Positions 7,105 through 58,481 of a stretch of 64,000 bases of DNA are shown one piece after another (the stretch's first letter is position 1; each line of letters starts with the position of its first letter). The position numbers and the translations under genes were made by a program. Below the pieces are notes generated by a model. The model did no database searches. It was not told where the DNA came from and saw only the letters and a program-made list of their open reading frames with translations. Source of the stretch: Patescibacteria group bacterium UBA2772 (GTDB taxonomy: Bacteria > Patescibacteriota > Minisyncoccia > Moranbacterales > DUUL01). Location: NCBI GenBank assembly GCA_002352545.1, contig DEIO01000026.1, positions 4,099-68,098 of the forward strand, written 5' to 3'.

Positions 7105-7121
7105 TATAACCAACCAGAAAC

Positions 7122-7154
7122 AAAAACATCACGTCCGAGGATGTGATGTTTTTT
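7122..7154 (-). terminator. strong bidirectional hairpin terminator
   Basis: AAAAACATCAC-GTCCGAGGAT-GTGATGTTTTT: an 11-bp stem with T-runs on both strands. It lies about 270 nt downstream of the CAP-domain gene stop. Confidence 0.65.
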
Positions 7155-7420
7155 CGATTACCCTAAATAGGGTTAGAGCAGAGAATTCCGCCCTTTATTG
7201 TGAACAAATTTGTGATTTGTTTTGATTCTAGGATCATTTCTAACCCCACTCTAACTATGCACTTTTAGTTATTATATCCTTATCTTGTCGTGCGATTAAC
7301 TAGACTGGCTTTAGAGACGATTCCTTTGGTTTATTCAGTTGTAAGGTACTTTTTTTGTTTTATTTAAATCTTGTTACTAAACAGTCTTTTATTACAATTA
7401 CTTGGCAACAAGTCACTTCT

Positions 7421-8479: not shown

Positions 8480-8651
8480 TTTGTTTTGGTGTTTGATCAG
8501 TATATGTTCATCTACTATTCTTTTATCTCTTATCTCTTTGTCCTCTGGATTTTAAGATAACAAAAATGGGAGATCAACACCCTGATCACCCGTAATTAAC
8601 TCACAAATACAGTATACATCATTGAAAGCATTTTGTCAATCATACAATTTC

Positions 8652-9593: not shown

Positions 9594-9598
9594 CTTTT

Positions 9599-13789: not shown

Positions 13790-14165
13790 GATATTTAGTT
13801 GACATTAAGTGGTGTTTTTTCTATATTGTAAACAAAAAGAAAACTTTTTTCAAAGGGAGATGCCATGCAAGAACAAACAAGAAAATTCAATTCTACTGTT
13901 TTGAAATCAACCAAAAAAATTGGTGGAATAACAATAAAAAAAATAATTTTAGATCTTGCTGACTTTTCTGAAACAACCAATCTCGGCAAATTGAACCTTA
14001 GAGACCCTTATTTATACCAAGGAGGGCATTTTGTTTCTAGCCTCTTTTGTGACATGCTTGTTGTGTCGGATAAATTTCAAGAACTACAAATTGCCGTGTG
14101 TAAGTTGCCTTATTTTGAAAAAATCGCTCATTAAATCTCAGATTCCAAGAATCAACGAGTAACCC

Positions 14166-34413: not shown

Positions 34414-34496
34414 AAGTTATCCACAGCTTTTTTTATTTTTTTCACATTTTCTTCACAAATACCTTGTTTAGGCTTTTATTGGCCTGTGGATAACTT
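34414..34496. promoter_or_regulatory. cluster of DnaA-box motifs (two perfect TTATCCACA in inverted orientation)
   Basis: TTATCCACA at 34417-34425 and its complement TGTGGATAA at 34485-34493, each inside a 13-nt inverted repeat AAGTTATCCACAG. TTTTTCACA at 34438-34446 fits TTWTNCACA, and TTCTTCACA at 34449-34457 has one mismatch. Confidence 0.6.
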
Positions 34497-36320: not shown

Positions 36321-38417
36321 CTATTTAACCCAATGTTTTTCTTTTGTTTTTTTATCTTCTTCTTTTCTTGTTTCTCCTATTTTTTTCCTAGCTAACCTCC
36401 TTAAAACATTTAAATTTTTATCTTTTAACTTTTTAGCTAATCCTATAAGTTGCTGTTTTTCGTTTATCTTAGGATCTTTAATGACTTTCACAAGTAAAAC
36501 TTCTAAAATAGCACCTATTTGTGGACTAGGTTTTATTTTCAGTTCTTTAATAATATCATTTCCGTTTATTTTTAATTGTTTTACTGAAATAGGATCTTTT
36601 GACACCTTTTCAACCATATATTGAAAATGTCTTAATTTATAAGGAATGGCCTTTGGGACACCGCTACCCAATCTATCCCCAACCCTAACATCAATTAAAT
36701 CATTAATGTTATCAATTCCTACTTTTCCTATAACCCTCCTAACACCTGCTTCTCCAACCTCATCTACATTATAATAAAACATATGATTTTTAACCAAAAG
36801 CGTTGTTTTTTCAATTATCTGTCTTGGAAACTTCAATCTTCTAAGTATTTTGTTTGTTATTTTAGCACCAACATGTTCATGGTTATAAAAGGTTGATTTC
36901 TCACCAATTCCCTCCTTAACTGCTGGTTTTCCTATATCATGTAAAAATGCAGCTAATCTTACTTCTAGCTTCTTAGAGGGACATTTAGCCAGACTTGCTA
37001 CTAAATGCTTGTAAACAGTATTGTAAGGTCCATAGTAGTGATGATGATTTTGTTTAATACTTATTGTTTGAACAACTTCTGGCATTATATATTTCATTAA
37101 GCCTGTTTCAACTAAAAGTTCAATCCCTTCTTCAGGATGATTTGATAATATAATTTTTTCAAATTCATCTCGAATTCTTTCTAGTGAAACAAAGGACATA
37201 TTGTAAACTCTTTTTATAATAGCTTTTTTTGTTTCCTTTTCTATTTCAAAACCTAATACAACCGCAAATCTAACAGCTCTAAGCATTCTCAGTGCATCTT
37301 CTTGAAATCTTTCATCTGGATCACCAACAGCTCTAATTGTTTTATTTTCAAGATCTTTTTGTCCATCAAATAGGTCAATCACCTTATATCCCTCTTCTTT
37401 AGAAATTTCCTTGTTTTCTTTTTTACCAATATCCCCTAGTTTGATTGCCATGGCATTTATAGTAAAATCCCTCCTAGAAAGGTCTTCTTGGAGTGTTTTG
37501 GCAAATATAACACCATCTGGATGTCTTTTGTCTGAATACTTTGATTCTATTCTATATGTTGTTATTTCAATATTTTCCCCTTCTATAAGCTTTATTTGTG
37601 GAATTTTAAATAAATCACTTTGCTTATTGAAACAATTAATTGAATCATGCATAAGTTCACTGCCCTTTTTTGTGATTATTTCTTTAAATACACCTTCTTT
37701 GTTGAAATGATCCTTAAGCCAACCATTGTGTTGTGTTTTTGCTTCGTCTTCCAAAAGATTGATTCTTTCAATCGAAAGACTATCTATCAGATCAGCTTCT
37801 AGTAAAATTTGTGCTTCAAAACTTTTTCTTGAAACATCATAATTGTGATTGATAGCTTCTTTTAGGAATTTTATAGTCTTTTTTTCTAAATCAAGTGTTT
37901 GCATTTCAATCTCAAACACTTCTTGCCCTTTGATTATATGAGATTTTTTCCCTTTTATTGCCCTACCCGTATCATGAAAAGTTACTATTAATTCAATGAT
38001 CTTATCATTAATACATTTAAAGTCACTAGCTATAAAAACTGCATTTTTAACAACATTTTGTGAATGTAAAAGTCCATGTCTCTTACACTTTATCTTGCTA
38101 AGATATTTTTTCTTGGCAATTTCAATAAGTTCATCAATTTGCTCACTAGTTATTGAAACTTCCCTAGAAATAACCTTTAATTCAGAGAGATACTTATCTG
38201 GCACAATAACTGTTCCAAATTTATTCTCATATTTTCCGTCAGGAAAAACCCATAATACCTGTTTAGGGGTTGCTTTTGTTGTTATATCCCAATCATTGGG
38301 CTTTTTTTCTAATAAAGTATCCCTTACGCATCCGCCAACAACAAATGCATCAAAATTGTTTTTCTCCAACTTTGACAGTGCTAATTTAACACATTTGGGG
38401 ATTTTTAAATTTTTCAT
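36321..38417 (-). CDS. cca: CCA-adding enzyme / poly(A) polymerase family nucleotidyltransferase with C-terminal HD domain and a ~200-aa HD-like insertion in the head domain
   Basis: GGCVRDTLL..NDWDITT, FGTV, then (after the insert) IEITTYRIE..RHPDGVIF..LQEDLSRRDFTINAMA, ERFQEDALRMLRAVRF, and the C-terminal HD block LHDIGKP..HEHVG. Confidence 0.85.
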   Translation of the reverse strand: MKNLKIPKCVKLALSKLEKNNFDAFVVGGCVRDTLLEKKPNDWDITTKATPKQVLWVFPDGKYENKFGTVIVPDKYLSELKVISREVSITSEQIDELIEIAKKKYLSKIKCKRHGLLHSQNVVKNAVFIASDFKCINDKIIELIVTFHDTGRAIKGKKSHIIKGQEVFEIEMQTLDLEKKTIKFLKEAINHNYDVSRKSFEAQILLEADLIDSLSIERINLLEDEAKTQHNGWLKDHFNKEGVFKEIITKKGSELMHDSINCFNKQSDLFKIPQIKLIEGENIEITTYRIESKYSDKRHPDGVIFAKTLQEDLSRRDFTINAMAIKLGDIGKKENKEISKEEGYKVIDLFDGQKDLENKTIRAVGDPDERFQEDALRMLRAVRFAVVLGFEIEKETKKAIIKRVYNMSFVSLERIRDEFEKIILSNHPEEGIELLVETGLMKYIMPEVVQTISIKQNHHHYYGPYNTVYKHLVASLAKCPSKKLEVRLAAFLHDIGKPAVKEGIGEKSTFYNHEHVGAKITNKILRRLKFPRQIIEKTTLLVKNHMFYYNVDEVGEAGVRRVIGKVGIDNINDLIDVRVGDRLGSGVPKAIPYKLRHFQYMVEKVSKDPISVKQLKINGNDIIKELKIKPSPQIGAILEVLLVKVIKDPKINEKQQLIGLAKKLKDKNLNVLRRLARKKIGETRKEEDKKTKEKHWVK

Positions 38418-38432
38418 ATTTAAATATCAATG

Positions 38433-38504
38433 TGCCCTCGGTAAGAATCGAACTTACATCTAAGGCTTAGGAGTCCCTTATTCTATCCATTGAACTACGA
38501 GAGC
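38433..38504 (-). tRNA. tRNA-Arg (anticodon CCT)
   Basis: Reverse complement GCTCTCGTAGTTCAATGGATAGAATAAGGGACTCCTAAGCCTTAGATGTAAGTTCGATTCTTACCGAGGGCA; loop CTCCTAA. The anticodon stem has one 31:39 mismatch. Confidence 0.75.
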
Positions 38505-38510
38505 AAAAAA

Positions 38511-38577
38511 TGGCACTATGGGGACCCCCAAACCTCTCCCATGCCATGAAAGTACTTTACCAACTGAGCTATATCCC
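38511..38577 (-). other. aberrant tRNA-like sequence (5' two-thirds tRNA-like, GGC anticodon; no canonical T-arm or acceptor closure)
   Basis: Reverse complement GGGATATAGCTCAGTTGGTAAAGTACTTTCATGGCATGGGAGAGGTTTGGGGGTCCCCATAGTGCCA. It has a D-loop consensus AGCTCAGTTGGTA and an anticodon arm CTTTC-ATGGCAT-GGGAG, but there is no GTTCRANYC T-loop and no 3' strand complementary to GGGATAT. Confidence 0.3.
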
Positions 38578-38807
38578 TAAAAATATAGAGTTTTTTGAAT
38601 TTTGTACTTTTCTTCTAAAAATTCCTATCTTTCCCTTTTAATCATATATACAACAAAATAGATAAAAAATCAAATCTTTTCTCAAACATTTTTCAAAATT
38701 TATAAAAAACCTTATTTCTTTATTTATCTAAATATATTGCTCTTTTATTCTTTGTTTATAGTATTATTCTTTGTTTAATGAATTTATACTCTATTATTAA
38801 CCCTTCC

Positions 38808-39155
38808 ATGTTTCACGTGGAACAGTTAATACTTCTATTTACGTTGTTCCACATGGAACAACTTGTTTTATTTATCTTCCTCCCAATAATTTCTGGATTT
38901 TCTAAACTTAACATGTTCCACGTGAAACATGTTAAATTTGTTTTTATGTTGTTCCACGTGAAACAGTAAAGAATTAATTTTATGTTACTCCACGTTAAAC
39001 AATACATTTCATTAACAACTCCTTTTTCCTTTCGTTATTTACTTGCTCCATAAAGAACAAGTAAATAACTTCTTTTTTTTTGATGTTCCACATGGAACAG
39101 TTTAATCAACAAAAGAGTATTGCTTTGCTTAATGATATTATGTTCCACATGGAAC
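38808..39155. repeat. array of parS (ParB-binding centromere) palindromes
   Basis: 16-mers are TGTTTCACGTGGAACA 38808-38823, TGTTCCACATGGAACA 38844-38859, TGTTCCACGTGAAACA 38913-38928 and 38949-38964, and TGTTCCACATGGAACA 39083-39098 and 39140-39155. Degenerate copies lie at about 38983-39000 and 39043-39058. Three copies equal the classical consensus TGTTNCACGTGAAACA on one strand or the other. Confidence 0.8.
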
Positions 39156-39462
39156 ATAATATATTTGTAATCTTATATTCAATATTTTTATTGCTTATTA
39201 TTTTTTTTATAAAATGACTGTTGTTTTTTGTCAACTCTTTTAAACACCTTTTTTAAACCTTTTTATAGAATTTTTATTTATATTTTGATGTTTTGTTTTG
39301 TTTTATTGACAAAAAACTATATTTATGTCTTGACAAAACAAAGGCTATTGATAGTCTTAAAATAAGAAGTTCTTTCACATTGTTTTGTAAAAAATTTAAA
39401 ACGCTTACCAAAGCAACATTAACATATCTACGTTGGCTTAAAATCAACAAAAGGAGCTTGTT

Positions 39463-40347
39463 ATGACGAAAAAATTATTTTTTCTTTTAACCATGATTAT
39501 CGTCGGGTCTCTTTCCTTTGGAAACATGGCTCAAGCTAAATCTTTTAAAAAAATCATAACTGGTGCAACTTGGATGGCCGTTACGCCAAACTCTGATACT
39601 GGTTTGTGGGAATTTCGAAGAAATGGGGAGATGTTTAGTAATTTTGAATTTGATGTCAAATTCAAAATTGAAAATTCTCAACTCTTCTTAATGCGCAAAA
39701 AAGGGCCAAAAAGGGGAACTTACTTGAGATTTAATCTTCAAAAAAGGGGCGATCTTATTTATATATCATGGACCTCAGGTAAACCCTTTCTGTCGTTACA
39801 TCCTTGTCCAAACGGTTTTAAGGAACTGACGTTGGCCTCAAAAGAAGAAAATGGAAGAAAAAAGCTTTCTTTGGCCAAAAAATCCTTAAAAAAATCGTCT
39901 GATCCCTTTATTCAAAGAAAGGTTGCTCAACTTCTTTTTGACAATAATTATTTTAAAGACGCTCGGGATGTTTTCCTTAAATTGGGTGAAACAGAGAAAA
40001 TTGCTGCTTGTAATATTATGTATATAGCAACAACTAGAAAGATTCCTCGTGGGGTCAATATAGAATCTGCTGCTAAAACATTTTGGGCTGCCAATGCTGC
40101 CAATCACCCGTCACTTGAAGTTTTCTACTTAAGAGCTGAAGCAATCGCCTATGCCTGCGCTATTACTGGAAAGCACAAAAAAGCTCATGAGTATCAGGCG
40201 TCACTTTATCGTCAAGCAGAAAGATTTAAAATCCTAAAGGCAAGGGAGATGAAAAAAGCTGGGATTAATATCCCTAGAATTGTACAAACTATGCACCAAT
40301 ATGAAAAAGGGAATTGTCCAAAGAAGTTCGATATGAGTGGTATTTAA
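39463..40347 (+). CDS. hypothetical secreted protein (signal peptide)
   Basis: 294-aa ORF. Signal peptide LFFLLTMIIVGSLSFGNMAQA. A hairpin+T-run terminator lies at 40369-40408. No family recognised. Confidence 0.5.
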   Translation: MTKKLFFLLTMIIVGSLSFGNMAQAKSFKKIITGATWMAVTPNSDTGLWEFRRNGEMFSNFEFDVKFKIENSQLFLMRKKGPKRGTYLRFNLQKRGDLIYISWTSGKPFLSLHPCPNGFKELTLASKEENGRKKLSLAKKSLKKSSDPFIQRKVAQLLFDNNYFKDARDVFLKLGETEKIAACNIMYIATTRKIPRGVNIESAAKTFWAANAANHPSLEVFYLRAEAIAYACAITGKHKKAHEYQASLYRQAERFKILKAREMKKAGINIPRIVQTMHQYEKGNCPKKFDMSGI

Positions 40348-40409: not shown

Positions 40410-40481
40410 TTGACATCTTTTCTTGACAAAAAATATATTTAGCAGTAGGTTTTTATTCTACTTTTCCACACTTTGTCCACA
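40410..40481 (+). promoter_or_regulatory. putative dnaA promoter with DnaA-box-like motifs
   Basis: TTGACA 40410-40415, 18-nt spacer, TATATT 40434-40439. TTTTCCACA at 40462-40470 fits TTWTNCACA, and TTGTCCACA at 40473-40481 has one mismatch. About 70 nt upstream of dnaA. Confidence 0.5.
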
Positions 40482-40550: not shown

Positions 40551-41951
40551 ATGATTATTATGACCAACGAAGAGCTGTGGCAAGCTGTGTTGGGGGAGAT
40601 GGAGCTATCAATTTCTAAGGCTAGTTTTACTACATGGTTTAAAAATACCTCTATTTTTGGTATTTCAGAAAATCTAATTGTTATTTCCGTTCCTAATATA
40701 TTCGCAAAAGAATGGCTTGAAAAAAAATACAAAGAAAACTTATTAAAAGCCATCAGACAATATGATACAAAAATAACATCCCTCTCTTGTAAAATAGGCA
40801 ATTCAGAAAATAATATAGTTTCTTCAACTAATAAAGAATCCTCTTCTGACCAAAATATCAGAAGAACGATAGATATTAGAAAATCTTTTATAAATAAACC
40901 TATACAGAAAAGACCTAACTCTTATAGATCTAATTTAAACAAACGTTATTCTTTTGAAAGTTTTGTTGTAGGTAGTAATAATGAATTGGCTTATGCTGCT
41001 TGCCGTTCAATCGCCGAGTCTCCTGGTAAAAACTACAATCCTTTGTTTATTTATGGTGGTGTTGGTCTGGGAAAAACCCATTTACTTCAATCAACAGGAA
41101 ATTATGCTTTAGAAATAAATCCCGATATCAAAATTCGTTATGTGAGTATGGAACGCTTCACAAATGAATTGGTTGATGCTATTCAAAAATCTCGTGCTAA
41201 GGAGTTTAAAAACAACTATATTGACTTAGATATACTTATTTTAGATGATGTTCAGTTTTTAGCAGGAAAAGAAAAGACACAGGAAGAATTTTTTCATATA
41301 TTTGAATCTTTATATCACTTAGGTAAACAAATAATACTAAGTTCTGATAGAGCTCCTAAATCAATTCCTACGATAGAAGATCGTTTGAGATCTCGTTTTG
41401 AAGGAGGAATGATGGCTGATGTTAATAAGCCTGACCTTGAAACTAGAATAGCTATTATTAATAAGAAACTAACAGAAAAGAATTCTTCCTTACCAGAAAA
41501 TGTCGTAGAATATCTAGCTACCAATATTTATCATAATGTTAGAGAACTAGAAGGTGCTTTAAATAAAATTATTGTCACTTTTCAACTAAGAAATACCATC
41601 CCCACAATAGAAGATGTTACTGAATTAACTAGAGATGTTATTTCAGTTAACAGACAAAAAAATCTAACTACATCTAAGATAATAAAATCAGTTTCTGATT
41701 TTTATGATGTTAAACTAGAAGAGGTTATTGGTAAATCTAGACAGAAAAAAATTGTTAAACCTAGACAAATTAGTGTTTATTTTTTAAGACAAGAGTTAAA
41801 TCTATCTTTTCCTGAAATAGGGAAGGTATTAGGTGGTAGAGATCATTCAACGGCTATATATGCTTATGAAAAAATAACGAAGGAATTAGAAAATAATCTT
41901 TTATTAAAAGATCAACTTAAGTTTATTAAAGAGAAATTCATCGAATATTAG
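40551..41951 (+). CDS. dnaA: chromosomal replication initiator DnaA
   Basis: N-terminal WQAVLGEM..SFTTWF, AAA+ Walker A GGVGLGKTHLL, Walker B ILILDDVQF, and DNA-binding domain ..GGRDHSTAIYAYEKI. The start may be the MTNEELW Met three codons downstream. Confidence 0.95.
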   Translation: MIIMTNEELWQAVLGEMELSISKASFTTWFKNTSIFGISENLIVISVPNIFAKEWLEKKYKENLLKAIRQYDTKITSLSCKIGNSENNIVSSTNKESSSDQNIRRTIDIRKSFINKPIQKRPNSYRSNLNKRYSFESFVVGSNNELAYAACRSIAESPGKNYNPLFIYGGVGLGKTHLLQSTGNYALEINPDIKIRYVSMERFTNELVDAIQKSRAKEFKNNYIDLDILILDDVQFLAGKEKTQEEFFHIFESLYHLGKQIILSSDRAPKSIPTIEDRLRSRFEGGMMADVNKPDLETRIAIINKKLTEKNSSLPENVVEYLATNIYHNVRELEGALNKIIVTFQLRNTIPTIEDVTELTRDVISVNRQKNLTTSKIIKSVSDFYDVKLEEVIGKSRQKKIVKPRQISVYFLRQELNLSFPEIGKVLGGRDHSTAIYAYEKITKELENNLLLKDQLKFIKEKFIEY

Positions 41952-42228
41952 TCTGTGCATAAACTTGTTAATAACTTGTTTATTTCTTGTTATTTGCCTG
42001 TTAGGTTACTTAATAACATTCTGTTAATAATTATATTGAAAATTCAATAATTAGTTAAAAATTGAGTTTTCAACAAAATTACTAACATGATTTATACTTT
42101 TTATCTTGAATTTAATACACAGAAAAAAGTTATTGAATAAGGTATTAACTATGGTTTTCAACAGATCTTGTTACTTAATATATAATAATAGTAATTATAT
42201 AAAGAATAATATTAAATAATTATAAAAA

Positions 42229-45411: not shown

Positions 45412-46599
45412 ATGAAAAATAACAATATTTTAGGATTATTAAACAGAAAAAAGGTTGTTTTTTTTGTTATCTTTGCTTTTGCATGGTTCCAGTTTTCTCT
45501 TGCAGATGAAAACACATTAAATCGTTTTGAGGATTCAGATGGCGATGATTTATCAAATCAAGAAGAACAAGCAATTGAAACAGATCCAAATAATGCAGAT
45601 ACAGATGGCGATGGCTGGTCTGATGGTGTTGAGTTTAAGAGTGGTTTTGACCCTTTAGTAAAAGACGGAGCAGAAAGTGAACCTGTATTAGGTGAAAGTG
45701 AAGAAGTGAAAACAAATAAAGAAGATGTCTTAGTGGAAGCTACTAATGAAGATGAAAACAAAGGTGAGAGTCCTACAAATACCAAAGAGTCTAATACTGA
45801 AGACGAAGACGCTGGTGAAGTTGATGAAGAGGCTAATGCAACAGTAATTCTTAAGGAAGAGACCAATAAAGTTAAACCAAAAGAGGTAGACTTTTTAAAA
45901 GAGGTTGCTGTTAATAAAGAAATCTTAGAAACAATTGCAGAATCTGGTGAAAATGAAAAATATTCATTAACAGAAGATGAAGTTAAAGATATTGTTGCTA
46001 CAACAATTCAAAAAGCTAATCTTGGTCAGGAATTAGAAATAATTCCTGAAGAAGAATTAAATATTCAAGAAGAAGTTACTGGAGATGATGAAGTGAGTCT
46101 TGAAGAGGAAAAAAAGAATGTTGAAGAATATTTTGTAAAGGTAGGATATATTATTTTTGAAGAAGCTCCTTTTCTTTTCAAAGATAGCGGTAATATGGTT
46201 GGCGTAGCCACAACCCTTATCACAGGAATGGGAAATGATATGGAGGATGGTGAATCTTCGAACATAACAGATATAAAAAGTAAGACAGGTGCTATATATG
46301 AAAAAGTGAAAGAACTAGAAGTCCCATATGTTCTGAAAGATATTCATAAAATAGGACTTTCTTTACAGAAATATATGCTTGGACAAGACGAAACACTTAC
46401 AACAGACAAAGACGATCCTGTTGCTCTAACATCAATGCTTGGGAAAATACAAGCTGTTATGTCAGAAGCAGATGTGTTAGGTGAGGATACATTAGGAATT
46501 TTAGATCAATTTGATATAGATGCCTTTGATATTTCAGATATAACAGGCTCTGTTGATATGCAGGAAATGATGGATACATCATCTATGTATGGTTTGTAA
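45412..46599 (+). CDS. secreted, highly acidic protein with thrombospondin-type-3-like Ca-binding repeats
   Basis: Signal/TM segment VVFFVIFAFAWFQFSLA, then DSDGDDLSNQEEQAIETDPNNADTDGDGWSDGVE, then a long E/D-rich linker. Confidence 0.55.
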   Translation: MKNNNILGLLNRKKVVFFVIFAFAWFQFSLADENTLNRFEDSDGDDLSNQEEQAIETDPNNADTDGDGWSDGVEFKSGFDPLVKDGAESEPVLGESEEVKTNKEDVLVEATNEDENKGESPTNTKESNTEDEDAGEVDEEANATVILKEETNKVKPKEVDFLKEVAVNKEILETIAESGENEKYSLTEDEVKDIVATTIQKANLGQELEIIPEEELNIQEEVTGDDEVSLEEEKKNVEEYFVKVGYIIFEEAPFLFKDSGNMVGVATTLITGMGNDMEDGESSNITDIKSKTGAIYEKVKELEVPYVLKDIHKIGLSLQKYMLGQDETLTTDKDDPVALTSMLGKIQAVMSEADVLGEDTLGILDQFDIDAFDISDITGSVDMQEMMDTSSMYGL

Positions 46600-46629
46600 A
46601 TCTACTTAAAATATTTATACAGATATAAA

Positions 46630-47541
46630 ATGTCAAAAATAAAAAAAATAGTAGCATCGATTGTAATAGCCTCGTTTCTTCTTACATCAGTCACACCAAC
46701 AATTGTACACGCTGAAATGTGGGGTACAAATATTGCATCAAGCATGATGAAACAGGTTTTAGAGCAAGTTTATCTTGTTTTAAGAAAAACAATTTTGCAA
46801 ACATTGAAAAGGGAAGCAAATGAAATGATAAAAAGCAGTATTGAAAAAGCTGTTTCTGGTTCTTCCGGTGAACCAATGGTGGTTTCTGATTACGAAGACT
46901 TTATATTTGGTGCGGCACAAGTTGCTGCTGAGGACACACTGGATGATTTCTTTTCTGTTTTACAAGAAGGAGTTTCTTCTGAAGAAAGAGATATGTTAAG
47001 AAATGTTGAACAAACAATAAGTAAACAACTAACACCAGCAATACCAGAAGTTACATTGCGTGAAGTAGTTGATTCTGATGATCCAATAAGTGATATTTTT
47101 AATCAAAGTAAAGGTGGTGGAATAGGAGCTTTAATGTCTTATCAATTTGGTGCTTACAATAATTCTACGAACGCTTATGTAAATGCAAAGCAAATAGTTC
47201 AGTCCAAGGCTAGGCAAGTTGCTGAAGCGCGGAAAACAGAGGTACTTGCTGGTAGTGGATTTAATACTGTAGTTGATGGGAATAAAGTTATTCCAGGAAA
47301 AGTTTCACAGGAAATTGTTTCTGCTGCTGAGCAAATGCCAATAGAGATGATTAATAATGCTAGTTCTTTAGAAGAAGTTATTGCTAGTTTTGTTGTTTCA
47401 TCAGTTACATCATTTGTAAAGAGTGGAATTAATGTTGTCACCAAGCCAATTAATAACGAAATGAGAAAAATTCGTAGGAATATTGGTAAGAATGGAGTGC
47501 AAGAACTTCAGGATAAACTTAAAAAAGGTCTCACAATCTAA
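46630..47541 (+). CDS. hypothetical secreted protein (T4SS-like cluster)
   Basis: Signal peptide IVASIVIASFLLTSVTPTIVHA; 303 aa; no family recognised. Confidence 0.5.
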   Translation: MSKIKKIVASIVIASFLLTSVTPTIVHAEMWGTNIASSMMKQVLEQVYLVLRKTILQTLKREANEMIKSSIEKAVSGSSGEPMVVSDYEDFIFGAAQVAAEDTLDDFFSVLQEGVSSEERDMLRNVEQTISKQLTPAIPEVTLREVVDSDDPISDIFNQSKGGGIGALMSYQFGAYNNSTNAYVNAKQIVQSKARQVAEARKTEVLAGSGFNTVVDGNKVIPGKVSQEIVSAAEQMPIEMINNASSLEEVIASFVVSSVTSFVKSGINVVTKPINNEMRKIRRNIGKNGVQELQDKLKKGLTI

Positions 47542-47552
47542 AAAGCAAAAAA

Positions 47553-49586
47553 ATGATACTTTTCAAAAACAAAAAAGTAGCGATAAAGGTATTTATACTC
47601 ATAGTGATAGGAGTTTTCTATTTTGGTTTACCAGCGCTTATTCCTACGACGTTTGCATCAAAAAATATAACTTCTGCTGAAGTGATGAATCAAGGAGCCG
47701 ACCAGAAACTTGATGGTTGGGGACCTGATATCGCTAATTGGATCATTATAAAAGCATTACAACTAATGCAATCTGTTTCTGGTTTTGTATTGGGATTAGG
47801 AATGTCATTAGTTGATCTTACGCTATCAGATAAGATGTACGAACAAGTTTTTTTTGCTGGAAGCAGTGTTGAAGCGATTAATACTGGTTGGGGATTAGTT
47901 CGAGATTTTGTTAATATGTTTTTTATACTTATATTAATATTTGTTGCAATTGCGACAATTCTAAGAGTAAATAAGTTTTCAGATAAAAAGTTTATTGTAT
48001 ATGTAGTTTCAGCAGCACTTTTTGTGAATTTTTCGAAACCAATAACGATGTTTATTATTGATATTTCGAATTTGGCCATGTCTTTTTTTATGAGCAATAT
48101 TAGAGAAGGAAATGCCAGTTACTCATCAGCTCTTTTGAATGCGCAGGGACTGGGAGAAATTTTTAAGAGCGACACGCAGAGTGCAGAAACTATGGGTATG
48201 TTGGTAGCGTGGATAGTTGAAATAGTATTTAAGTTTATTATGGGTGTAATGCTTTTATTACTAGGTTTTTCACTTATTGTAAGATTGATTGCACTTTGGG
48301 TATTGATAATTCTTTCCCCACTTGCATTTTTTGCAATGGCTCTTCCCGGAACTGCAATTGCAAGTATAAAAGGAACCTGGGTTAATAAATTAACTTATTG
48401 GTGTTTTTATGGGCCTGTAATGTTGTTTTTCTTCTGGTTAGCACTTGTTCTTGTAAGTGCGATTGGATTAAATGTTGCGTTTGGTGATGCGGAATTGCAA
48501 ATGGCAGGAATTAATAAAAACCATTTCATAATAGGCGCTTTGAAAATAATTATACCATATGCATCTTGTATATATATGTTATTTTATGGCTTTGATCTTT
48601 CTAAAAAGATGGCATCGCAGGCTGGACAAGGAGCTTCTTGGGGACTTGGCAAATCAACAGCAATGTTTGCTGGTGGTGCATTAGCAGCTAAATATGCAGG
48701 AAGAGGTATTGCAAAGGGTGCTAACATGGCAACGGGTGGAATTGCTCCAGTTGCAGTGTCTAATGTAAAGGAATCGTTTAAAAGGAATCGTCAGGCTGGC
48801 GCACTACAGAAAAAAGCTTTTGTACCAGGTGGTGCATTGGATAACAATGTTCATAAATCAAACCTTGTTAATGAAGCTACCAAGCAATGGGATCAGAAAG
48901 GTACACCTAGTGACAAAGAACTTTTGAATATCATGAATAAAAAACCTAGTCTTGTGGGGAAAACAATTGGAAATGCTGCGGGTGTAACAGGAACTAGAGC
49001 AGAGGCAGAGGCAAAAAGAAAAGCTGCCGCAATTAAATTAGCTGAAAAAGGTAAACTGGATAAAGATGGTTATGGAAAGGCTATGAGTTTGCTTTCAAAT
49101 GACAGTGGAAATTTAGAAAAGTTTGAAAAAGCTGCTAAAAAGAGAAATAGAAAAGAATTTATTGAGTATGGTATAGATAAGAACCTAGACAAAGGAGTGG
49201 AGGATGCTATTGTAAATGAAGAAACAAGGATGGGTACCACTATGTCGGCAGACGATAAAACAGCATTTAAAGCAAAAAGTAAAGAAAAAATAAGAAAAGA
49301 GGCTTATGAAAGTGAGTTAAAGAAAATGAACTTATCTGAGATTATGGAACAAAGTCCAGAATTTTTAGAACAAGGAGAAGTTAAAAACTATTTAAGAAAG
49401 AGTACTGGAGAGGGTGTTGAAAAAAGATTTAGCGTGAAGCAAATGAGAAAACAAGCAGCTGAAAACTTAGATGGTAAAAAACAGAAAATATTAGCTGATG
49501 AAAGATTCTTTGAAGAAAGTAAGCCAGATTTATCACCAGATTCTGCTGAAGATGAAAGAGATGCATTAAGAAATATGAATGGATAA
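47553..49586 (+). CDS. TrbL/VirB6-like polytopic membrane protein with charged C-terminal tail
   Basis: 6-7 TM helices with the block ..LIVRLIALWVLIILSPLAFFAMALPGT..W..KL..W.. typical of VirB6/TrbL-like proteins. K/E-rich ~270-aa C-terminal tail. Cluster context with VirB4. Confidence 0.55.
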   Translation: MILFKNKKVAIKVFILIVIGVFYFGLPALIPTTFASKNITSAEVMNQGADQKLDGWGPDIANWIIIKALQLMQSVSGFVLGLGMSLVDLTLSDKMYEQVFFAGSSVEAINTGWGLVRDFVNMFFILILIFVAIATILRVNKFSDKKFIVYVVSAALFVNFSKPITMFIIDISNLAMSFFMSNIREGNASYSSALLNAQGLGEIFKSDTQSAETMGMLVAWIVEIVFKFIMGVMLLLLGFSLIVRLIALWVLIILSPLAFFAMALPGTAIASIKGTWVNKLTYWCFYGPVMLFFFWLALVLVSAIGLNVAFGDAELQMAGINKNHFIIGALKIIIPYASCIYMLFYGFDLSKKMASQAGQGASWGLGKSTAMFAGGALAAKYAGRGIAKGANMATGGIAPVAVSNVKESFKRNRQAGALQKKAFVPGGALDNNVHKSNLVNEATKQWDQKGTPSDKELLNIMNKKPSLVGKTIGNAAGVTGTRAEAEAKRKAAAIKLAEKGKLDKDGYGKAMSLLSNDSGNLEKFEKAAKKRNRKEFIEYGIDKNLDKGVEDAIVNEETRMGTTMSADDKTAFKAKSKEKIRKEAYESELKKMNLSEIMEQSPEFLEQGEVKNYLRKSTGEGVEKRFSVKQMRKQAAENLDGKKQKILADERFFEESKPDLSPDSAEDERDALRNMNG

Positions 49587-49597
49587 AGCAAAACAAA

Positions 49598-50530
49598 ATG
49601 TGTGCAAATATAGAAAAAGAAAATATTTTATTAAGAAGACAAGCTTGTCCAATGAGCGCCAGCATTCACTGGAAACCAGAGGATGATACTGATAAAGATA
49701 TTCAGACATGGTTAGTTGTTTATAATAAATTACCATATCAAATAAGAGTCGGTTTAGTGGACGAGAAGACCGAAAAAGAAATAGTAAAAATAGCAAAAAA
49801 ATATAATTTATACAAAGTAGGAGAAGTAGGAGAAATTTCTAGAATAATTAGAGATTCATTTGTAATTGATGGTTTTAATGAGGCTGATGCCAAAGAGAGA
49901 ATTATCTCTAATCTAAGAGTGGAAGAAACTGCTATGATACGATTGTATGAAGAAATGATTGAATTAAGAAAGAAAATAGGGAATGTGCAAGATGGTGGCC
50001 TGGATGTTGTTATCGAAAAAATGCCTGTTATGGTAGCTATGGATAATTTCCCAGAGATTAGTAATCAACTTATAGGAGAGAAAAAAATAGTTTTAAGTGA
50101 AACAGAAAAATACGAAAAACCAAGCATTGAAAATTGGATTAATGATTATACTTCGCAAAAAGGAGCACAAGCTCATAATAATTTAGAGCGAAGTGATTAT
50201 ATTTTCAATTCAAAAAATGTAGAAAAGCTAACATTCGAAGAAAAGCAAAAATTAGCAATAATTTTGGAATCCTATGATGAAGAAGAAAAGCTATCAGTGG
50301 ATGTTAAAAGAAAAATATTTTTGTTTGATTCTATAGAAAACAACCAGAAAACTTTAAGAGAAGAGGCTTCTCCAGTAAAGAGCAATAGAAGAAAAAGTAT
50401 TTTAGGAGAATTTCCTTTAGTAGAAAGTGAAAATAAGGATAATAGCAGAAAAGAAGAAGGGATGAATGGTAAGAAAGATTTTACAACAAAAGATCAATCA
50501 AAACATATTATCAACCTAAAGGATATCTAA
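49598..50530 (+). CDS. hypothetical soluble protein (T4SS-like cluster)
   Basis: 310-aa ORF, no TM helices, no family recognised. The true start may be the internal MSASIHW. Confidence 0.45.
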   Translation: MCANIEKENILLRRQACPMSASIHWKPEDDTDKDIQTWLVVYNKLPYQIRVGLVDEKTEKEIVKIAKKYNLYKVGEVGEISRIIRDSFVIDGFNEADAKERIISNLRVEETAMIRLYEEMIELRKKIGNVQDGGLDVVIEKMPVMVAMDNFPEISNQLIGEKKIVLSETEKYEKPSIENWINDYTSQKGAQAHNNLERSDYIFNSKNVEKLTFEEKQKLAIILESYDEEEKLSVDVKRKIFLFDSIENNQKTLREEASPVKSNRRKSILGEFPLVESENKDNSRKEEGMNGKKDFTTKDQSKHIINLKDI

Positions 50531-50549
50531 GAAATAGAAAGAATGATAT

Positions 50550-50963
50550 ATGAATTTTAATGTTCCTCAGTATATTGAAGTTGAAGATAAAATTGCTTTT
50601 CAATTAACAATAAAGCAACTAGCCTGGCTTGCTCTCGCTGGCATAGCACTTTTCTTTTTGTGGCAAATAGGGATAGCAGCGCTTATAGTAATAGGAATCC
50701 CAGTGGTTTTATTGGCACTTGCATTTGCTTTTTATAAGCCAGCTGGAATGACATTTTTGCAATTTGTTAAAAATGGGATTTTTTATTTATTTAAACCAAA
50801 AATTCTTACTTGGCACAGAGAGGCAAAAAACCAAATAAAGAGAACGCCAAGAAAGTTAACAGATAGTAAAAGGAAGGCATCGATCAATAGATATGTAAAG
50901 GAGAAGACGCTGAAATCTTCTGGAAGTTTAGCTGATTTATTAGACAAAAATAGTAAGATTTGA
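50550..50963 (+). CDS. PrgI-family (VirB3-like) small membrane protein
   Basis: N-terminus MNFNVPQYIEVEDKIAFQLTIKQLAWLALAGIALFFLW followed by a second TM helix matches the PrgI-family pattern. Sits directly upstream of VirB4-like genes. Confidence 0.55.
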   Translation: MNFNVPQYIEVEDKIAFQLTIKQLAWLALAGIALFFLWQIGIAALIVIGIPVVLLALAFAFYKPAGMTFLQFVKNGIFYLFKPKILTWHREAKNQIKRTPRKLTDSKRKASINRYVKEKTLKSSGSLADLLDKNSKI

Positions 50964-51646
50964 TTATTAAACATAGTTTTATGGCAGGAATGGGTGTTTC
51001 TAGTATGCAAGAACAGCTTAATGTGTCTGAAATTAAAGACGGAGTAGTTGTTGTTAAGGATGGTTCATTAAGGGCTGTTTTGGCAGTTTCTTCAATTAAC
51101 TTTGATTTGAAATCTAGTACTGAACAAGAAGCTATTATTTTTGCATATCAAAGATTTTTAAACTCATTAGATTTTCCAATTCAAATTGTTATTTCAACAA
51201 GAAAGTTTGATATAAAACCATATTTAGAGATGTTGGAAAGAAAGAAAGATACAGAAAGAAACAATTTACTAAGAAATCAAATAGATGATTACGTGCACTT
51301 TATTACTGAATTGGTAAATGTTTCTAATATTATGTCTAAATTATTCTATATAACAATTCCTTTTTATGCAGTTGAAGCAAAAAGAACTGGTTTTATGGAT
51401 AAGGTTATGACAAAAATAAGACCAAGAAAGGTTGTTTATCAAGAAAGAGAAAAATTTGAAACATATAAGAATCAGTTATTTCAAAGAGTTGAGGAAGTAG
51501 AAGAGTCACTTTCTGGTAGTGGTGTGAGAGTGGCACCGTTGGATACACAAGAGTTAATAGAAATGTACTATAATTGTTATAATCCTTCTGAGTTTGAGCA
51601 CGTTGCAGTTCCAACGCTAGAGAATTTAAATCTTGAAAGAGGTTAA
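50960..51646 (+). CDS. hypothetical protein resembling a stand-alone VirB4/TraC N-terminal domain
   Basis: VSEIKDGVVVVKDGSLRAVLAVSSINFDLKSSTEQEAIIFAYQRFLNSLDFPIQIVI resembles the start of VirB4/TraC-type proteins. No P-loop. Overlaps the upstream stop by 4 nt. Confidence 0.4.
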   Translation: MIIKHSFMAGMGVSSMQEQLNVSEIKDGVVVVKDGSLRAVLAVSSINFDLKSSTEQEAIIFAYQRFLNSLDFPIQIVISTRKFDIKPYLEMLERKKDTERNNLLRNQIDDYVHFITELVNVSNIMSKLFYITIPFYAVEAKRTGFMDKVMTKIRPRKVVYQEREKFETYKNQLFQRVEEVEESLSGSGVRVAPLDTQELIEMYYNCYNPSEFEHVAVPTLENLNLERG

Positions 51647-51656
51647 ATAAAAAAAT

Positions 51657-53516
51657 ATGCCAGGTTTACTTAATTTTGGGAAAAACAAAAAAAGCAAAGA
51701 AATTAACAAGAAAAAAGCGGTGGATCCTGCAATAAATATGCAAGGAGAAGTTTCTGACGATTTATTACAAAAGGAAAAACTCTATCAAGAAGGTCTTGCT
51801 AGAGTTATTGATCTTATTTCACCATCAGCTTTTGGTGTCTCTAGCTCTAATCTACAAATTGGAGATACTTTTTGTAGAACCTTGTTTGTAGCAGCTTATC
51901 CAAGAGCTCTTGCTATGGGATGGATGAATCCAGTGATAGGAACCGATCTTCCTTTAGATATATCAATGTTTATCTATCCTGTTGATACGGGGACTATTTT
52001 GAAAAAGTTAAGAAAAAAAGTTACACAAATTCAGTCCGAGATGAACATTGAGGCTGAAAAGGGATTAACAAGAGATCCGATTTTGGAAATGGCGTATAAC
52101 AATGTAGAAGCTCTAAGGGATCAGTTGCAAGAAGGAGTAGAAAGATTTTTCAAGTTTGGCTTATATTTTAATATTTTTGGAGAGACCAAGGAAGTTTTGG
52201 ACAGAAATACTATTATGCTAGAATCTTTGCTAAATGCAAGATCTGTTTATACAAAAAGAACTATTTTTAGAATGAAAGAAGGTTTTGTTTCAACAATACC
52301 TCTTGGGGTTGATAAATTGATGAATGGTAACGCTTTAAATACATCACCTCTTTCAACAACATTCCCTTTTGTTTCAGCGGATGTAACCTCGAATCAAGGA
52401 ATCTTATATGGAATTAACAGACACAATAACTCCTTGATTTTATTTGATCGTTTTTCTATGGAAAATGCAAATATGGTTGTTTTTGCAAAATCTGGTGCAG
52501 GAAAGAGCTATACTGTTAAGTTGGAAATTTTACGTGCACTTATGTTGGGCTCTAGTGCTGTTATTATTGATCCAGAAGATGAATATAAATACCTTTCTGA
52601 AACAGTAGGTGGTTCTTATCTAAGAATTTCTTTAAACACTGATAATCATATCAACCCATTCGATTTATCTGTTGAGGAGGGCATGGAAGTAGAAGATATC
52701 GTCAGAAGTACGATCGCTTCTTTATTGGGGTTATTAAAATTAATGCTTGGAACGTTGACTCCTGAGGAAGAATCAATTTTAGAACAGGCAATTAGAGAAA
52801 CTTATGCAATTAGAGATATAACAGAAGATACGCCTTTAGATGACTTAAAAAGCAGAACAATGCCAATTTTGTCAGACCTATATGAAGTTCTTTCTAATAT
52901 GAAAGGTGTTGAAGACCTAACTATTAGACTTCAAAAATATACAGAAGGTATATTTTCGGGATTTTTGAACAATAGAACAAATATATCATTAGATAATCAG
53001 TTGGTAGTTTTCAATATTAGAGATTTAGAAGAAGAGCTTCGTCCAATGGCTATGTTTATGATTTTAAATTATATTTGGAAAGAAATTAGAATAAATATCA
53101 AAAAAAGGTTAATTGTTGTTGATGAGGCTTGGAGAATGATGGAACATGATGAAGCGGCAAGATTTTTATTTATGGTAGCGAAAAGAATAAGAAAGTATTA
53201 CGGAGGACTTACAACAATTACACAGGATATTTCAGACTTTATGTCGTCTAAATATGGAAAGCCTATTGTGTCAAATTCTTCTATTCAAATGTTGATGAAA
53301 CAATCTCAGTCAGCAATTGATGTTATTGCAGATACCTTTTATCTAACAGACAGGGAAAAATATCTATTAATGGATTGTGATGTGGGAGAGGGAATATTTT
53401 TCGCAGGGCTTAAAAGAGCGGCTATTCAAGTAATCGCTTCATATGACGAGGACAAAATAATAACAACTAATCCTGTTCAGAGAATTGAGATTGAAAAAGA
53501 AGAAAAAGACGATTAA
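51657..53516 (+). CDS. VirB4-family type IV secretion ATPase
   Basis: Walker A FAKSGAGKSYT (nt 52485-52511), Walker B RLIVVDEAW, downstream ITQDISDF. N-terminal block IGDTFCRTLFVAAYPRALAMGWMNPV is typical of Gram-positive VirB4/TraE-like ATPases. Confidence 0.8.
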   Translation: MPGLLNFGKNKKSKEINKKKAVDPAINMQGEVSDDLLQKEKLYQEGLARVIDLISPSAFGVSSSNLQIGDTFCRTLFVAAYPRALAMGWMNPVIGTDLPLDISMFIYPVDTGTILKKLRKKVTQIQSEMNIEAEKGLTRDPILEMAYNNVEALRDQLQEGVERFFKFGLYFNIFGETKEVLDRNTIMLESLLNARSVYTKRTIFRMKEGFVSTIPLGVDKLMNGNALNTSPLSTTFPFVSADVTSNQGILYGINRHNNSLILFDRFSMENANMVVFAKSGAGKSYTVKLEILRALMLGSSAVIIDPEDEYKYLSETVGGSYLRISLNTDNHINPFDLSVEEGMEVEDIVRSTIASLLGLLKLMLGTLTPEEESILEQAIRETYAIRDITEDTPLDDLKSRTMPILSDLYEVLSNMKGVEDLTIRLQKYTEGIFSGFLNNRTNISLDNQLVVFNIRDLEEELRPMAMFMILNYIWKEIRINIKKRLIVVDEAWRMMEHDEAARFLFMVAKRIRKYYGGLTTITQDISDFMSSKYGKPIVSNSSIQMLMKQSQSAIDVIADTFYLTDREKYLLMDCDVGEGIFFAGLKRAAIQVIASYDEDKIITTNPVQRIEIEKEEKDD

Positions 53517-53582
53517 AAAAGTTAGTTGATATAGTATCTTAATTTAGGGGTGTGATTAAGTTGAATTAAATAAATTAGTACT

Positions 53583-54356
53583 ATGAGAAATAAAAGGCTC
53601 AAGGGTGTGCCAAAAAACAGTAAGGATTATTATAAAAATTACTCAACGGCGAGAACTAAATCGCCAGAAGAACAAGAAGCTATTGAAAGAAAAAACGGTT
53701 TTGTTTTGGGGTCCGAAAGAGGTGAAAAATTAGCAAATCAATCAGAGGTTTCCCAAAAATGGAACGGTGGCAAAAATGAAAACCAGCAAAGTAGGCAGCC
53801 ATCAAATAAAACAACTAAAAATGATTCTTCAAAAACTGCGTCTGAAAGAGAAAAGTATAATAAACTACAACAAAGCAGAATCAAAGACCAAAGAACGGCA
53901 ATGAAGTCAACTAGTTCCAAGAGTGTTGTAACAACGAGCAGTAAAGGTGGATCCACAAGAAGAGGTAGAGGCAAAAGAAGAAAAAGAAAACCACAGATAA
54001 ATCAGGACATGGCATATGCAGCAGCTACTGCGTATAAAGAGATTAGTCCTTCTGAAGATGCAGCACATATAATAGCAATAGTTATTTCACTAGGTGCTGA
54101 TATAGGAACATTAGTTCCGGTTTTAAATTGGGTGGTGGCTCCTTTGGCAATAATGACATTATGGGTTGTTTACTTTCTTGGAGGACATTGGCAAAAAAGA
54201 ATTGGTAGAAAAGCAGTTGTTTCAGCGATGGGCTATTCTATAGAGATGATTCCAGTCGCATCAGCTCTTCCAGCTTTCACAATTACGGCTGTTATGAATT
54301 ATTCTATGGCGCTTATAGAGAAAAGACTTATAAAAATGCAAAATAACGAAGTATAA
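53583..54356 (+). CDS. hypothetical membrane protein with basic disordered N-terminus and C-terminal TM helices
   Basis: The N-terminal ~140 aa is K/R/S/N/Q-rich (..RRGRGKRRKRKPQ..), then 3 TM helices. No family recognised. Confidence 0.45.
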   Translation: MRNKRLKGVPKNSKDYYKNYSTARTKSPEEQEAIERKNGFVLGSERGEKLANQSEVSQKWNGGKNENQQSRQPSNKTTKNDSSKTASEREKYNKLQQSRIKDQRTAMKSTSSKSVVTTSSKGGSTRRGRGKRRKRKPQINQDMAYAAATAYKEISPSEDAAHIIAIVISLGADIGTLVPVLNWVVAPLAIMTLWVVYFLGGHWQKRIGRKAVVSAMGYSIEMIPVASALPAFTITAVMNYSMALIEKRLIKMQNNEV

Positions 54357-55030
54357 TGAAGAAAAAAGAGAAAGAAGATATACTATTTGGAATGATAGTT
54401 CTACTTAATTTTTTATTGGTAATACTATTAACAAATCTTTTTTTAAAAGATGTTAGAGCAGGTGGTATTTGGGAGTGGATGGTAATTTCTGCTTTGTTTT
54501 TATTTATATCGCCTTTTTTTATTGTTAAAAAAATATTCAATGAAAATACAGATGAATATTTTTTGAAATTTAATCCTGATTATAAGGAAATAATATACTC
54601 AATATTCATAGCTTCTTTTTTTGTTGCGGTGATGTGTCTTTTTGTGGTAAAATTAAACTGGTTAAATAGTTTAAGAATATCCTCGTGGGTATTAGCAGAA
54701 GATGTAAAATTGATGTTATTTGTTGATCTTTTGATTTTACCGGTAGTTGTTTTTTCTAAAGAATTTTTCTTTAGAGGATTTATATTAAAAAGACTATTGT
54801 CTTTAACAAATGTTTTTTCTGCTATTGTAATTCAAGCAATTTTATTTCTAATTTTTGAAATAGGCACCGGAGAAATGATTTCTTGGAAGAGTATGTTACT
54901 TATATTGTTTCCTAATATACTTTTAGGATTTTTAGCTTATAAAAACAAATCGATTGTTGTTTCAACAGTTTTTCATTGGGTGTATTTGTTAATTTTAGAT
55001 ATTTATTTCTACTACCAATTTGCGTCGTAG
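54356..55030 (+). CDS. CPBP family intramembrane glutamic endopeptidase (CAAX protease/Abi-like)
   Basis: Polytopic 224-aa protein with SKEFFFRGF (EExxxR-type motif 1) and a late FHWVYLL (His motif). Confidence 0.6.
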   Translation: MKKKEKEDILFGMIVLLNFLLVILLTNLFLKDVRAGGIWEWMVISALFLFISPFFIVKKIFNENTDEYFLKFNPDYKEIIYSIFIASFFVAVMCLFVVKLNWLNSLRISSWVLAEDVKLMLFVDLLILPVVVFSKEFFFRGFILKRLLSLTNVFSAIVIQAILFLIFEIGTGEMISWKSMLLILFPNILLGFLAYKNKSIVVSTVFHWVYLLILDIYFYYQFAS

Positions 55031-55051
55031 GAGCTTAAACAAAAATAAATT

Positions 55052-58030: not shown

Positions 58031-58044
58031 CATAATATCAGTAT

Positions 58045-58458
58045 ATGCGATTAGACAAAAATAAAAGTATTCTATTCATTGGCCTAGTGTTTTTGTTTCA
58101 AACTACTAGTGTTTTTGCTGGGGGGTACACAACAAAAGAACTTATTCCAGGTGAAGCTGTTGGCTCGAATGATTTCATGACTTATTTGAATTCGTTTTAT
58201 AATTTTGGTATTGCTATATCAGCATTACTTGCGGTGTTTATGATTGGGTTCGGTGCTTTTAAATATGTAGCTCTTTCTGCTGGAAATGCCTCGACTATGA
58301 GTGATGCGAAAGAAACTGTTTATAGTGCTATCTTTGGATTGACATTGGCTTTAATCGCTTGGTTAATTTTATATGTTATTAATCCTGATTTGGTGAATAA
58401 CTCAATGACAACAATTCCTACAATTAAAGATTGTACTAATCCGGCTAACTGTAAGTAG
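58045..58458 (+). CDS. T4SS pilin-like (VirB2/TrbC-like) small protein
   Basis: 137 aa. Signal peptide (LFIGLVFLFQTTSVFAGG), then two hydrophobic helices (FGIAISALLAVFMIGFGAF; AIFGLTLALIAWLILYVINPDLV). Architecture and the ..NP.L ending are as I recall for CPR/Firmicute T4SS pilins. Confidence 0.5.
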   Translation: MRLDKNKSILFIGLVFLFQTTSVFAGGYTTKELIPGEAVGSNDFMTYLNSFYNFGIAISALLAVFMIGFGAFKYVALSAGNASTMSDAKETVYSAIFGLTLALIAWLILYVINPDLVNNSMTTIPTIKDCTNPANCK

Positions 58459-58481
58459 AAATTTACGGACAAATTAAATAA

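Follow-up and report, generated by a model that had tools for sequence, protein, structure and literature searches.

The 64,000-nt stretch of contig DEIO01000026.1 from the Patescibacteria group bacterium UBA2772 (the window, to whose positions all coordinates refer unless another locus is named) carries a dense array of parS sites in non-coding DNA upstream of dnaA. These 16-bp palindromes, recognized by the partition protein ParB, are the centromere sites of nearly all bacteria. The array is located where the coding strand changes. The predicted genes between 22320 and 38417 all lie on the minus strand, and those between 39463 and 59651 all on the plus strand. To the left of the array lie the gene of the CCA-adding enzyme (36321-38417, minus strand), tRNA-Arg(CCT) (38432-38504, minus strand) and a degenerate tRNA-Ala(GGC) (38510-38577, minus strand). 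The two tRNAs form the array border and are the last minus-strand features. To the right, a plus-strand gene for a 294-aa secreted protein without a family match precedes dnaA (40551-41951, plus strand; TIGR00362, E = 1.3e-150), which is followed in order by dnaN and the genes of a DciA-family protein and a UbiA-like protein. The cumulative G-C count reaches its minimum at 39560, with a plateau from 39021 to 40302, and the sign of the GC skew flips there. The skew minimum and the switch of the gene strand together place the array in the replication origin region. An initial annotation of the window had put the array at the strand switch and about 1.4 kb from dnaA, and both statements are correct: dnaA starts 1395 bp past the last parS site.

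The site search was performed with TGTTNCACGTGAAACA, allowing up to three mismatches. Within 348 bp of non-coding DNA (38809-39156) lie six strong parS 16-mers with at most two mismatches, one 13/16 copy and one decayed copy. Three of the strong sites match the consensus at 16/16 positions, namely parS-1 (38809-38824), a minus-strand match that reads TGTTTCACGTGGAACA (reverse complement TGTTCCACGTGAAACA), parS-3 (38914-38929, TGTTCCACGTGAAACA) and parS-4 (38950-38965, TGTTCCACGTGAAACA), the latter 36 nt past parS-3. The other three, parS-2 (38845-38860), parS-5 (39084-39099) and parS-6 (39141-39156), read TGTTCCACATGGAACA and match at 14/16 positions. This C5/G12 variant, in which the central CG is changed to CA, has two mismatches to TGTTNCACGTGAAACA and one to the perfect palindrome TGTTCCACGTGGAACA. 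A degenerate copy follows 36 nt past parS-4 (38986-39001, TACTCCACGTTAAACA, 13/16), and a decayed remnant (39044-39059, TGCTCCATAAAGAACA, 11/16) is aligned with an intact site of the relative L001 in a three-genome alignment. The start-to-start spacings of 36, 69, 36, 36, 98 and 57 nt are irregular, which characterizes the group as a cluster and not as a tandem repeat. The initial annotation had listed the same six strong copies and two degenerate ones; all are present, but each of its coordinates for the strong sites is one base too low, and the near-palindrome it described around the last copy is 28 nt long (39135-39162, with parS-6 as its core) instead of 26 nt.

At the threshold of three mismatches, the window contains 19 strand-matches to parS; 100 dinucleotide shuffles gave 2.05 on average and 8 at most. 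In the DNA covered, the sites are restricted to one locus. With up to two mismatches allowed, the only site in the 64 kb outside the array is found at 11117, within uvrA, and the 21-kb loci of the relatives described below contain none beyond their arrays. The region 38700-39300 is matched at 100% identity by an independent Logan assembly of SRR1313734, so that the array is not an assembly artefact. The contig that contains the window, ~74 kb long, is represented in assemblies of the Joint Genome Institute, ENA and Logan.

Array-bearing relatives and site variation

A database search with the DnaA sequence returned matches from Patescibacteria (candidate phyla radiation, CPR) only, the closest being metagenome-assembled genomes (MAGs) of Candidatus Moranbacteria/Moraniibacteriota with 82% identity. 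For the comparison, 80 dnaA loci were fetched and parS sites were counted within ~10 kb of dnaA; a metagenome scan added further members. All of the six closest relatives (6/6; DnaA 59-82% identical) have an array upstream of dnaA, with five (L001), four (L002), seven (L003), four (L004), 21 (L005) and nine sites (L006). The metagenome scan contributed L104, with 15 perfect sites in 984 bp and full synteny, as well as L189 (eight sites) and L167 (seven sites), whose arrays adjoin the CCA-enzyme gene. In total, the array is found at the syntenic place in nine related loci with 4-21 copies. The gene order CCA enzyme, tRNA-Arg, tRNA-Ala, array, dnaA, dnaN is kept in L001-L006 and likewise in L104.

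The remaining 74 Patescibacteria loci (DnaA ≤55% identical) have no site with up to two mismatches within ~10 kb of dnaA, except for a lone two-mismatch site ~8 kb from dnaA in L050, and no other repeated 12-nt palindromes were detected in them. A different Patescibacterium (L194) has two sites 2.6 kb upstream of dnaA. Judging from DnaA and synteny, L003, L004, L009, L020, L025, L029 and many of L033-L079 belong with Moranbacteria/Parcubacteria; the database labels 'uncultured Bdellovibrionales' and 'Candidatus Saccharibacteria' on these MAGs are probably erroneous.

The conservation concerns the array and not the DNA between its sites. In an alignment of the intergenic regions of the window, L001 and L002 (64% identical), the spacers are poorly alignable while the sites persist. 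The largest array, in L005 on the 1.3-Mb contig JAXHLG010000002.1, extends over 1.95 kb inside a stretch of ~4.1 kb (5914-10003) without any open reading frame (ORF) of at least 100 aa, which is remarkable for a CPR genome. The same stretch also holds two tRNAs and nested inverted repeats at 6907-7204 and 9514-9624.

Site statistics were compiled for 87 sites from 10 loci. The perfect 16-mer TGTTTCACGTGAAACA accounts for 61/87 sites, and the sites of L003-L006 and L104 correspond exactly to the published consensus TGTTTCAC-GTGAAACA. This idealised parS was used in structural work on ParB; positions 2 and 7 and their mirror positions separate it from the site of the ParB paralogue Noc, TATTTCCCGGGAAATA (PMC7383237). 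At these discriminating positions the array sites have parS-type bases almost without exception (G2 in 86/87, A7 in 87/87, T10 in 87/87, C15 in 87/87). Twelve positions of the 16-mer show no or almost no variation; changes are limited to positions 5/12, which are N in the consensus, and to the CpG at the centre. The spacers, in contrast, are unrelated and 36-198 nt long (40-198 nt in the relatives), which argues for selection on the 16-mer itself. The pattern is the signature expected of selection on the 16-bp dyad by a protein with ParB specificity.

Positions 5/12 change in concert across all sites of a genome. The window, L001 and L002 share the half-site TGTTCCAC, and L003-L006 and L104 the half-site TGTTTCAC. 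The concerted change suggests either co-evolution with ParB or turnover of the array by duplication. L001 has five perfect palindromes, and its site is identical to TGTTCCACGTGGAACA, the sequence of parS2/3 of Pseudomonas aeruginosa. In that species, neither a CA centre nor two mismatches abolish binding, although the affinity is lower (PMC4368675), so that the variants of the window are plausible as weaker sites.

A putative chromosomal centromere and its alternatives

Taken together, the array is very probably an origin-proximal ParB-loading region and thereby the centromere of this Moranbacteria chromosome. Clusters of the same perfect 16-mer adjoin parA-parB in unrelated bacteria, which supports the reading of the array as parS. 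The initial annotation had proposed ParB sites at the origin with Par proteins encoded elsewhere. The site sequence, the locus, the skew and the conservation in relatives support the first part of this proposal, but the cognate ParB was not found.

The search for it was performed at several levels. Queries for phmmer were Spo0J and Soj of Bacillus subtilis, each 100% identical to its database entry, and profile hidden Markov models (HMMs) were built from 54 ParB and 60 ParA sequences. The profiles readily detected ParA and ParB in the control loci described below. With Spo0J and Soj, phmmer found nothing in the window or the 80 dnaA loci. A database search with Spo0J returned Bacillus proteins only, and Pfam revealed no ParB domain in ten unassigned ORFs of the window. 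RsmG and other genes that neighbour parAB were not found in the CPR loci. L123, a candidate for a CPR ParB donor, proved to be alphaproteobacterial and was rejected.

Several points weigh against a centromere. The profile HMMs detected no ParA or ParB in 1.52 Mb from 90 Patescibacteria loci, up to ~10 kb from dnaA, nor in the window or the rest of its ~74-kb contig up to both ends, which confirms and extends the earlier statement that the window lacks parA and parB. No literature on ParB or parS in CPR bacteria was found. Furthermore, the central CpG is replaced by CpA/TpG in 3/6 strong sites of the window and in 4/4 sites of L002, which, along with the two decayed copies, could indicate relaxed selection. 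As no ParB is present in the searched DNA, we infer the cognate protein and its binding to the array: a canonical ParB would be encoded elsewhere in the genome, occupy the sites and act in segregation and SMC loading.

A gene for a DUF4446 protein at 573-1103 may provide a weak, circumstantial link to ParB by analogy. In numerous metagenome loci outside the CPR this family directly adjoins parB, and 19 ORFs neighbouring ParAB match it. The comparison comprised the window, L083 and L084 as well as L096, L102, L110, L114, L115 and L162. As a guide to a CPR parB, DUF4446 failed. In CPR bacteria the family adjoins infB, with no ParB nearby, and it is widespread in Patescibacteria (652 database matches). 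At the infB locus of L083, a related 1.13-Mb contig from the Joint Genome Institute (JGI), a reverse transcriptase gene (RVT_1) and a bAvd accessory gene are found (12793-14214), which together look like a diversity-generating retroelement.

By analogy with established ParABS biology, a ParB dimer would recognize each 16-bp palindrome via its helix-turn-helix, bind cytidine triphosphate (CTP), close into a clamp and slide onto the flanking DNA. A nucleoprotein complex would thereby form on the newly replicated origin, to be moved by ParA and/or to load SMC condensin. Many closely spaced sites between promoter-like blocks would provide a high local loading rate as well as tolerance of the loss of single sites.

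The lack of a visible ParB in 74 kb, the changed CpG centres and the two decayed copies, next to a tRNA-Ala that is likewise a pseudogene, are also what would be expected of an orphan centromere, i.e. former ParB sites that are drifting in a sub-lineage which lost or is losing ParB. This is improbable for the window. The other 12 positions are intact in 6/6 strong sites, the sister locus L001 retains its five perfect palindromes, and free drift at 30% G+C would erase G/C positions fast and unevenly. In addition, a CA centre does not prevent ParB binding in P. aeruginosa.

The position at the origin also brings DnaA, or another origin protein of altered specificity, into consideration as the ligand of the palindromes. 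The half-site TGTTCCACA agrees with the DnaA box TTATCCACA at 7/9 positions, and canonical boxes are scarce around dnaA. Moreover, DnaA of the array-bearing clade has a DNA-binding signature of its own, DHSTAIYAY versus DHTTAIHAY; it reads GGRDHSTAIYAY (MYA in L005 and L006) versus GGRDHTTAIHAY elsewhere. The change comprises Thr to Ser and His to Tyr in the C-terminal domain (41750-41900 in the window; compared across L001-L006). Both residues make contact with the DnaA box in the E. coli protein. Nevertheless, a role as DnaA sites is very unlikely. The ancestral half-site TGTTTCACG agrees with the DnaA box at 5/9 positions only, none of the array sites matches TTWTNCACA with up to one mismatch, and the dyad symmetry of the 16-bp sites is not shared by DnaA boxes, which are asymmetric 9-mers.

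Canonical boxes are furthermore conserved elsewhere at the locus, from which it follows that DnaA of this clade still uses the standard box. Two tandem boxes (TTTTCCACA and TTGTCCACA; 40462-40481, starting at 40462 and 40473, plus strand) are located ~80 nt upstream of dnaA, and boxes occupy the equivalent place in L001, L002 and L006, within ~80-100 nt upstream of the gene. Four box-like 9-mers (TTATCCACA, TTTTTCACA, TTCTTCACA and an inverted TTATCCACA) lie at 34417-34493 in the spacer between the genes for RarA and a major facilitator superfamily (MFS) transporter, 4.3 kb left of the array. This group is conserved in L001 (~4080-4160) and may serve to titrate DnaA or belong to the origin. 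A further box is present at 41954 in the dnaA-dnaN spacer. Other Patescibacteria also have few DnaA boxes, mostly in this spacer, and boxes are equally scarce with or without the array.

Alternatively, the sites could serve another dimeric helix-turn-helix regulator of divergent promoters, or be hairpins selected for their structure as terminators or cruciforms. The array is indeed flanked by two conserved blocks in the alignment of the window, L001 and L002. A near-invariant block on the minus strand (TATACAACAAAAT...TAAAAAATCAA, 38645-38680), ~70 nt upstream of the tRNA operon, is probably the promoter region of this operon, although it was not called by the scan that scored two of the parS sites as terminator-like. 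A block with two TTGACA hexamers on the plus strand (39296-39335) is the putative promoter region of the first plus-strand gene. With promoter-like blocks on both sides, the array lies between divergent promoters that probably fire outward.

A structural role would also be in line with the palindromes themselves. Of 57 sites, 12 sit in longer perfect palindromes with at least four extra pairs, compared to a background of 1.5% (P ~4e-11), and their arms differ from site to site. The longest one spans 46 nt (L001, 8386-8431), others are found in L002 (8434-8467), in L005 (7625-7656) and in the window (28 nt each at 39135-39162 and 38908-38935, the latter prolonging parS-3 by 6 bp on each side). 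Two possible explanations for the extension are selection for extrudable DNA and template-switch mutation at quasi-palindromes, with the 16-bp core as the seed. Terminator-like scores were obtained for two sites. However, the stems are AT-rich outside the parS core, 25/57 sites have no palindrome extension at all, and the up to 21 sites over 2 kb in L005 would be needless for a regulator. Convergence on the exact 16-bp ParB consensus in more than 80 sites is itself very improbable, and neither a regulator nor structure-selected hairpins can be given more than a slight chance. A CRISPR array was rejected as well, given a core of 16 nt, compared to 24-48 nt in CRISPR repeats, the irregular pitch, the lack of cas genes and the absence of an Rfam match.

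A plasmid, phage or conjugative element that integrated here and left its centromere is scarcely credible as the source of the array: dense parS arrays lacking ParB do occur on viral contigs, and a cluster resembling a type IV secretion system (T4SS) follows dnaA at 45-60 kb, but the array coincides with the chromosomal skew minimum and is flanked by housekeeping genes (CCA enzyme, tRNAs, dnaA-dnaN-dciA), with synteny kept across relatives of 59-82% DnaA identity and with neither an integrase nor a repeat border.

Within the centromere interpretation, a more far-reaching scenario can be put forward only tentatively and is rather doubtful as a whole. It holds that the centromere moved away from parAB, was amplified upstream of dnaA and underwent an unusual evolution of half-sites and palindromes. 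In this scenario, the array of L005, with 21 consensus sites in 2 kb, lies in a 4-kb region free of genes, although the genomes are streamlined in other respects. With ParB being loaded right at the origin, replication initiation might be linked to SMC loading and segregation in these ultra-small cells, from which ParA may be missing. The half-site would have changed in concert from TGTTTCAC to TGTTCCAC, and the palindromes, extended up to 46 bp, would point to selection for cruciform-prone DNA or to strong template-switch mutation at ParB sites.

The organisation and segregation of chromosomes are essentially undescribed in CPR/Patescibacteria, whose cells are tiny, mostly uncultured and episymbiotic. 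In MAGs of Moranbacteria, the array can serve as a sequence marker for the origin region, and its reading as a centromere predicts that a canonical ParB is retained in this clade, with a gene distant from the centromere. With 4-21 sites and CG or CA centres, the arrays constitute a natural series for the effect of site number and spacing on CTP-dependent ParB loading. The working picture of ParABS is left unchanged.

Comparison with other parS clusters and partition systems

Origin-proximal, multi-copy parS is textbook knowledge, and tight clusters are common in metagenomes. Particular to the array are the CPR host, the coupling to dnaA and not to parAB, the number of up to 21 sites in 2 kb and the restriction to one clade. 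In a control scan for metagenome contigs with two perfect parS sites 46-76 nt apart, at least 120 contigs were obtained. Among the 120 listed loci, clusters comprise 2 (76 loci), 3 (27), 4 (4), 5 (5), 6 (4), 7 (2), 10 (1) or 15 sites (1). ParA and/or ParB are encoded in the fetched stretch of 77/120 of them, and in 57/79 of those with a length of at least 5 kb, with the genes usually directly beside the sites. Among the matches listed, 3/8 clusters with at least six sites come from the Moranbacteria clade. The initial annotation had regarded a tight array as unusual, which is overstated in view of these contigs, which mostly have 2-3 sites immediately ahead of parAB, and in some cases 7-10 sites. 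Dense arrays also occur in uncultured bacteria outside the CPR, with ten sites in ~530 bp beside parAB in L187 (1693-2240), six sites in 170 bp in L131 (780-964) and 17 sites in 9.7 kb around parAB in L180.

Similar clusters are present on viral contigs. In IMG/VR, 49 contigs (L207-L255) have at least two perfect parS sites of the chromosomal type 36-66 nt apart. One of them, L245, has eight sites with a pitch of ~38 nt (6137-6460). A canonical ParB is encoded in the fetched stretch of 1/49 of these contigs, and the elements may exploit the ParB of their host. These viral contigs showed no relationship to CPR.

Compared to the chromosomal systems of B. subtilis (Spo0J-parS) and Caulobacter crescentus (ParB-parS; PMC7383237), the array has the same 16-bp palindrome with parS-type bases, in multiple copies and near the origin. 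In model chromosomes, however, the sites are distributed over kb to hundreds of kb and some are intragenic, while the Moranbacteria arrays hold 6-21 sites in non-coding DNA, about one per 50-100 bp. A further difference is that the Moranbacteria array touches the upstream region of dnaA and has no parAB nearby.

Closer parallels are species in which a group of redundant sites lies to one side of oriC. In P. aeruginosa, the four parS sites nearest to oriC form such a group, of which a single site suffices (PMC4368675), so that the extra copies are redundant there. Similarly, Corynebacterium glutamicum has ten parS sites, nine of which are intergenic, within 35 kb, and one site of the cluster is enough (PMC7083940). 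P. aeruginosa also shares the site of L001 and has weaker variants with a CA centre. In contrast to both species, the density is 10-100 times higher here, the location is directly upstream of dnaA instead of 7-73 kb away, and the host is a reduced CPR bacterium.

The clusters linked to parAB in metagenomes (ten sites in L187, seven in L108 and 2-3 in many others) have in common with the array the perfect consensus, the pitch of 30-130 nt and the location in one intergenic region. They resemble an autoregulatory or loading region of the operon, whereas the Moranbacteria array is coupled to dnaA, with no parAB within 10-50 kb.

The centromere sopC of the F plasmid consists of twelve 43-bp tandem repeats with a conserved unit beside sopAB. 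Both sopC and the array present many short inverted-repeat copies to one partition protein within a few hundred bp of non-coding DNA. The likeness to plasmid centromeres noted in the initial annotation holds only loosely: the Moranbacteria sites are irregularly spaced, separated by unrelated spacers, of the chromosomal consensus type and at a chromosomal locus without adjacent parAB.

Noc sites are distributed around the chromosome with the exception of the terminus and are not known to cluster at oriC. They are related 16-bp palindromes bound by a ParB paralogue (PMC7383237), and the array sites are of the parS type at the discriminating positions in 86-87/87 cases.

Other features of the origin region

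Among the features that border the array, the tRNA-Ala(GGC) of the window is a pseudogene with a 5-nt deletion in the T-loop and mismatches in the acceptor and D-stem, and it was called by neither ARAGORN nor Rfam. L001-L003, L005 and L006 have intact copies in the equivalent position. Near the array, Rfam identified no RNA families other than tRNAs. The dnaA-dnaN spacer (41952-42228) is ~80% AT and contains one DnaA box, which makes it a candidate for the unwinding part of oriC.

The T4SS-like cluster is located directly downstream of dnaA-dnaN-dciA (45412-59651) and is syntenic in L006 and L104. It encodes a VirB4-like ATPase (51657-53516), a T4SS pilin-like protein (58045-58458) and large membrane and secreted proteins. 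At the opposite side of the window, two UvrA paralogues of 947 and 963 aa are encoded on the minus strand 1.7 kb apart (9599-12442 and 14166-17057), and a UvrC-like gene (12545-13789) is located between them.

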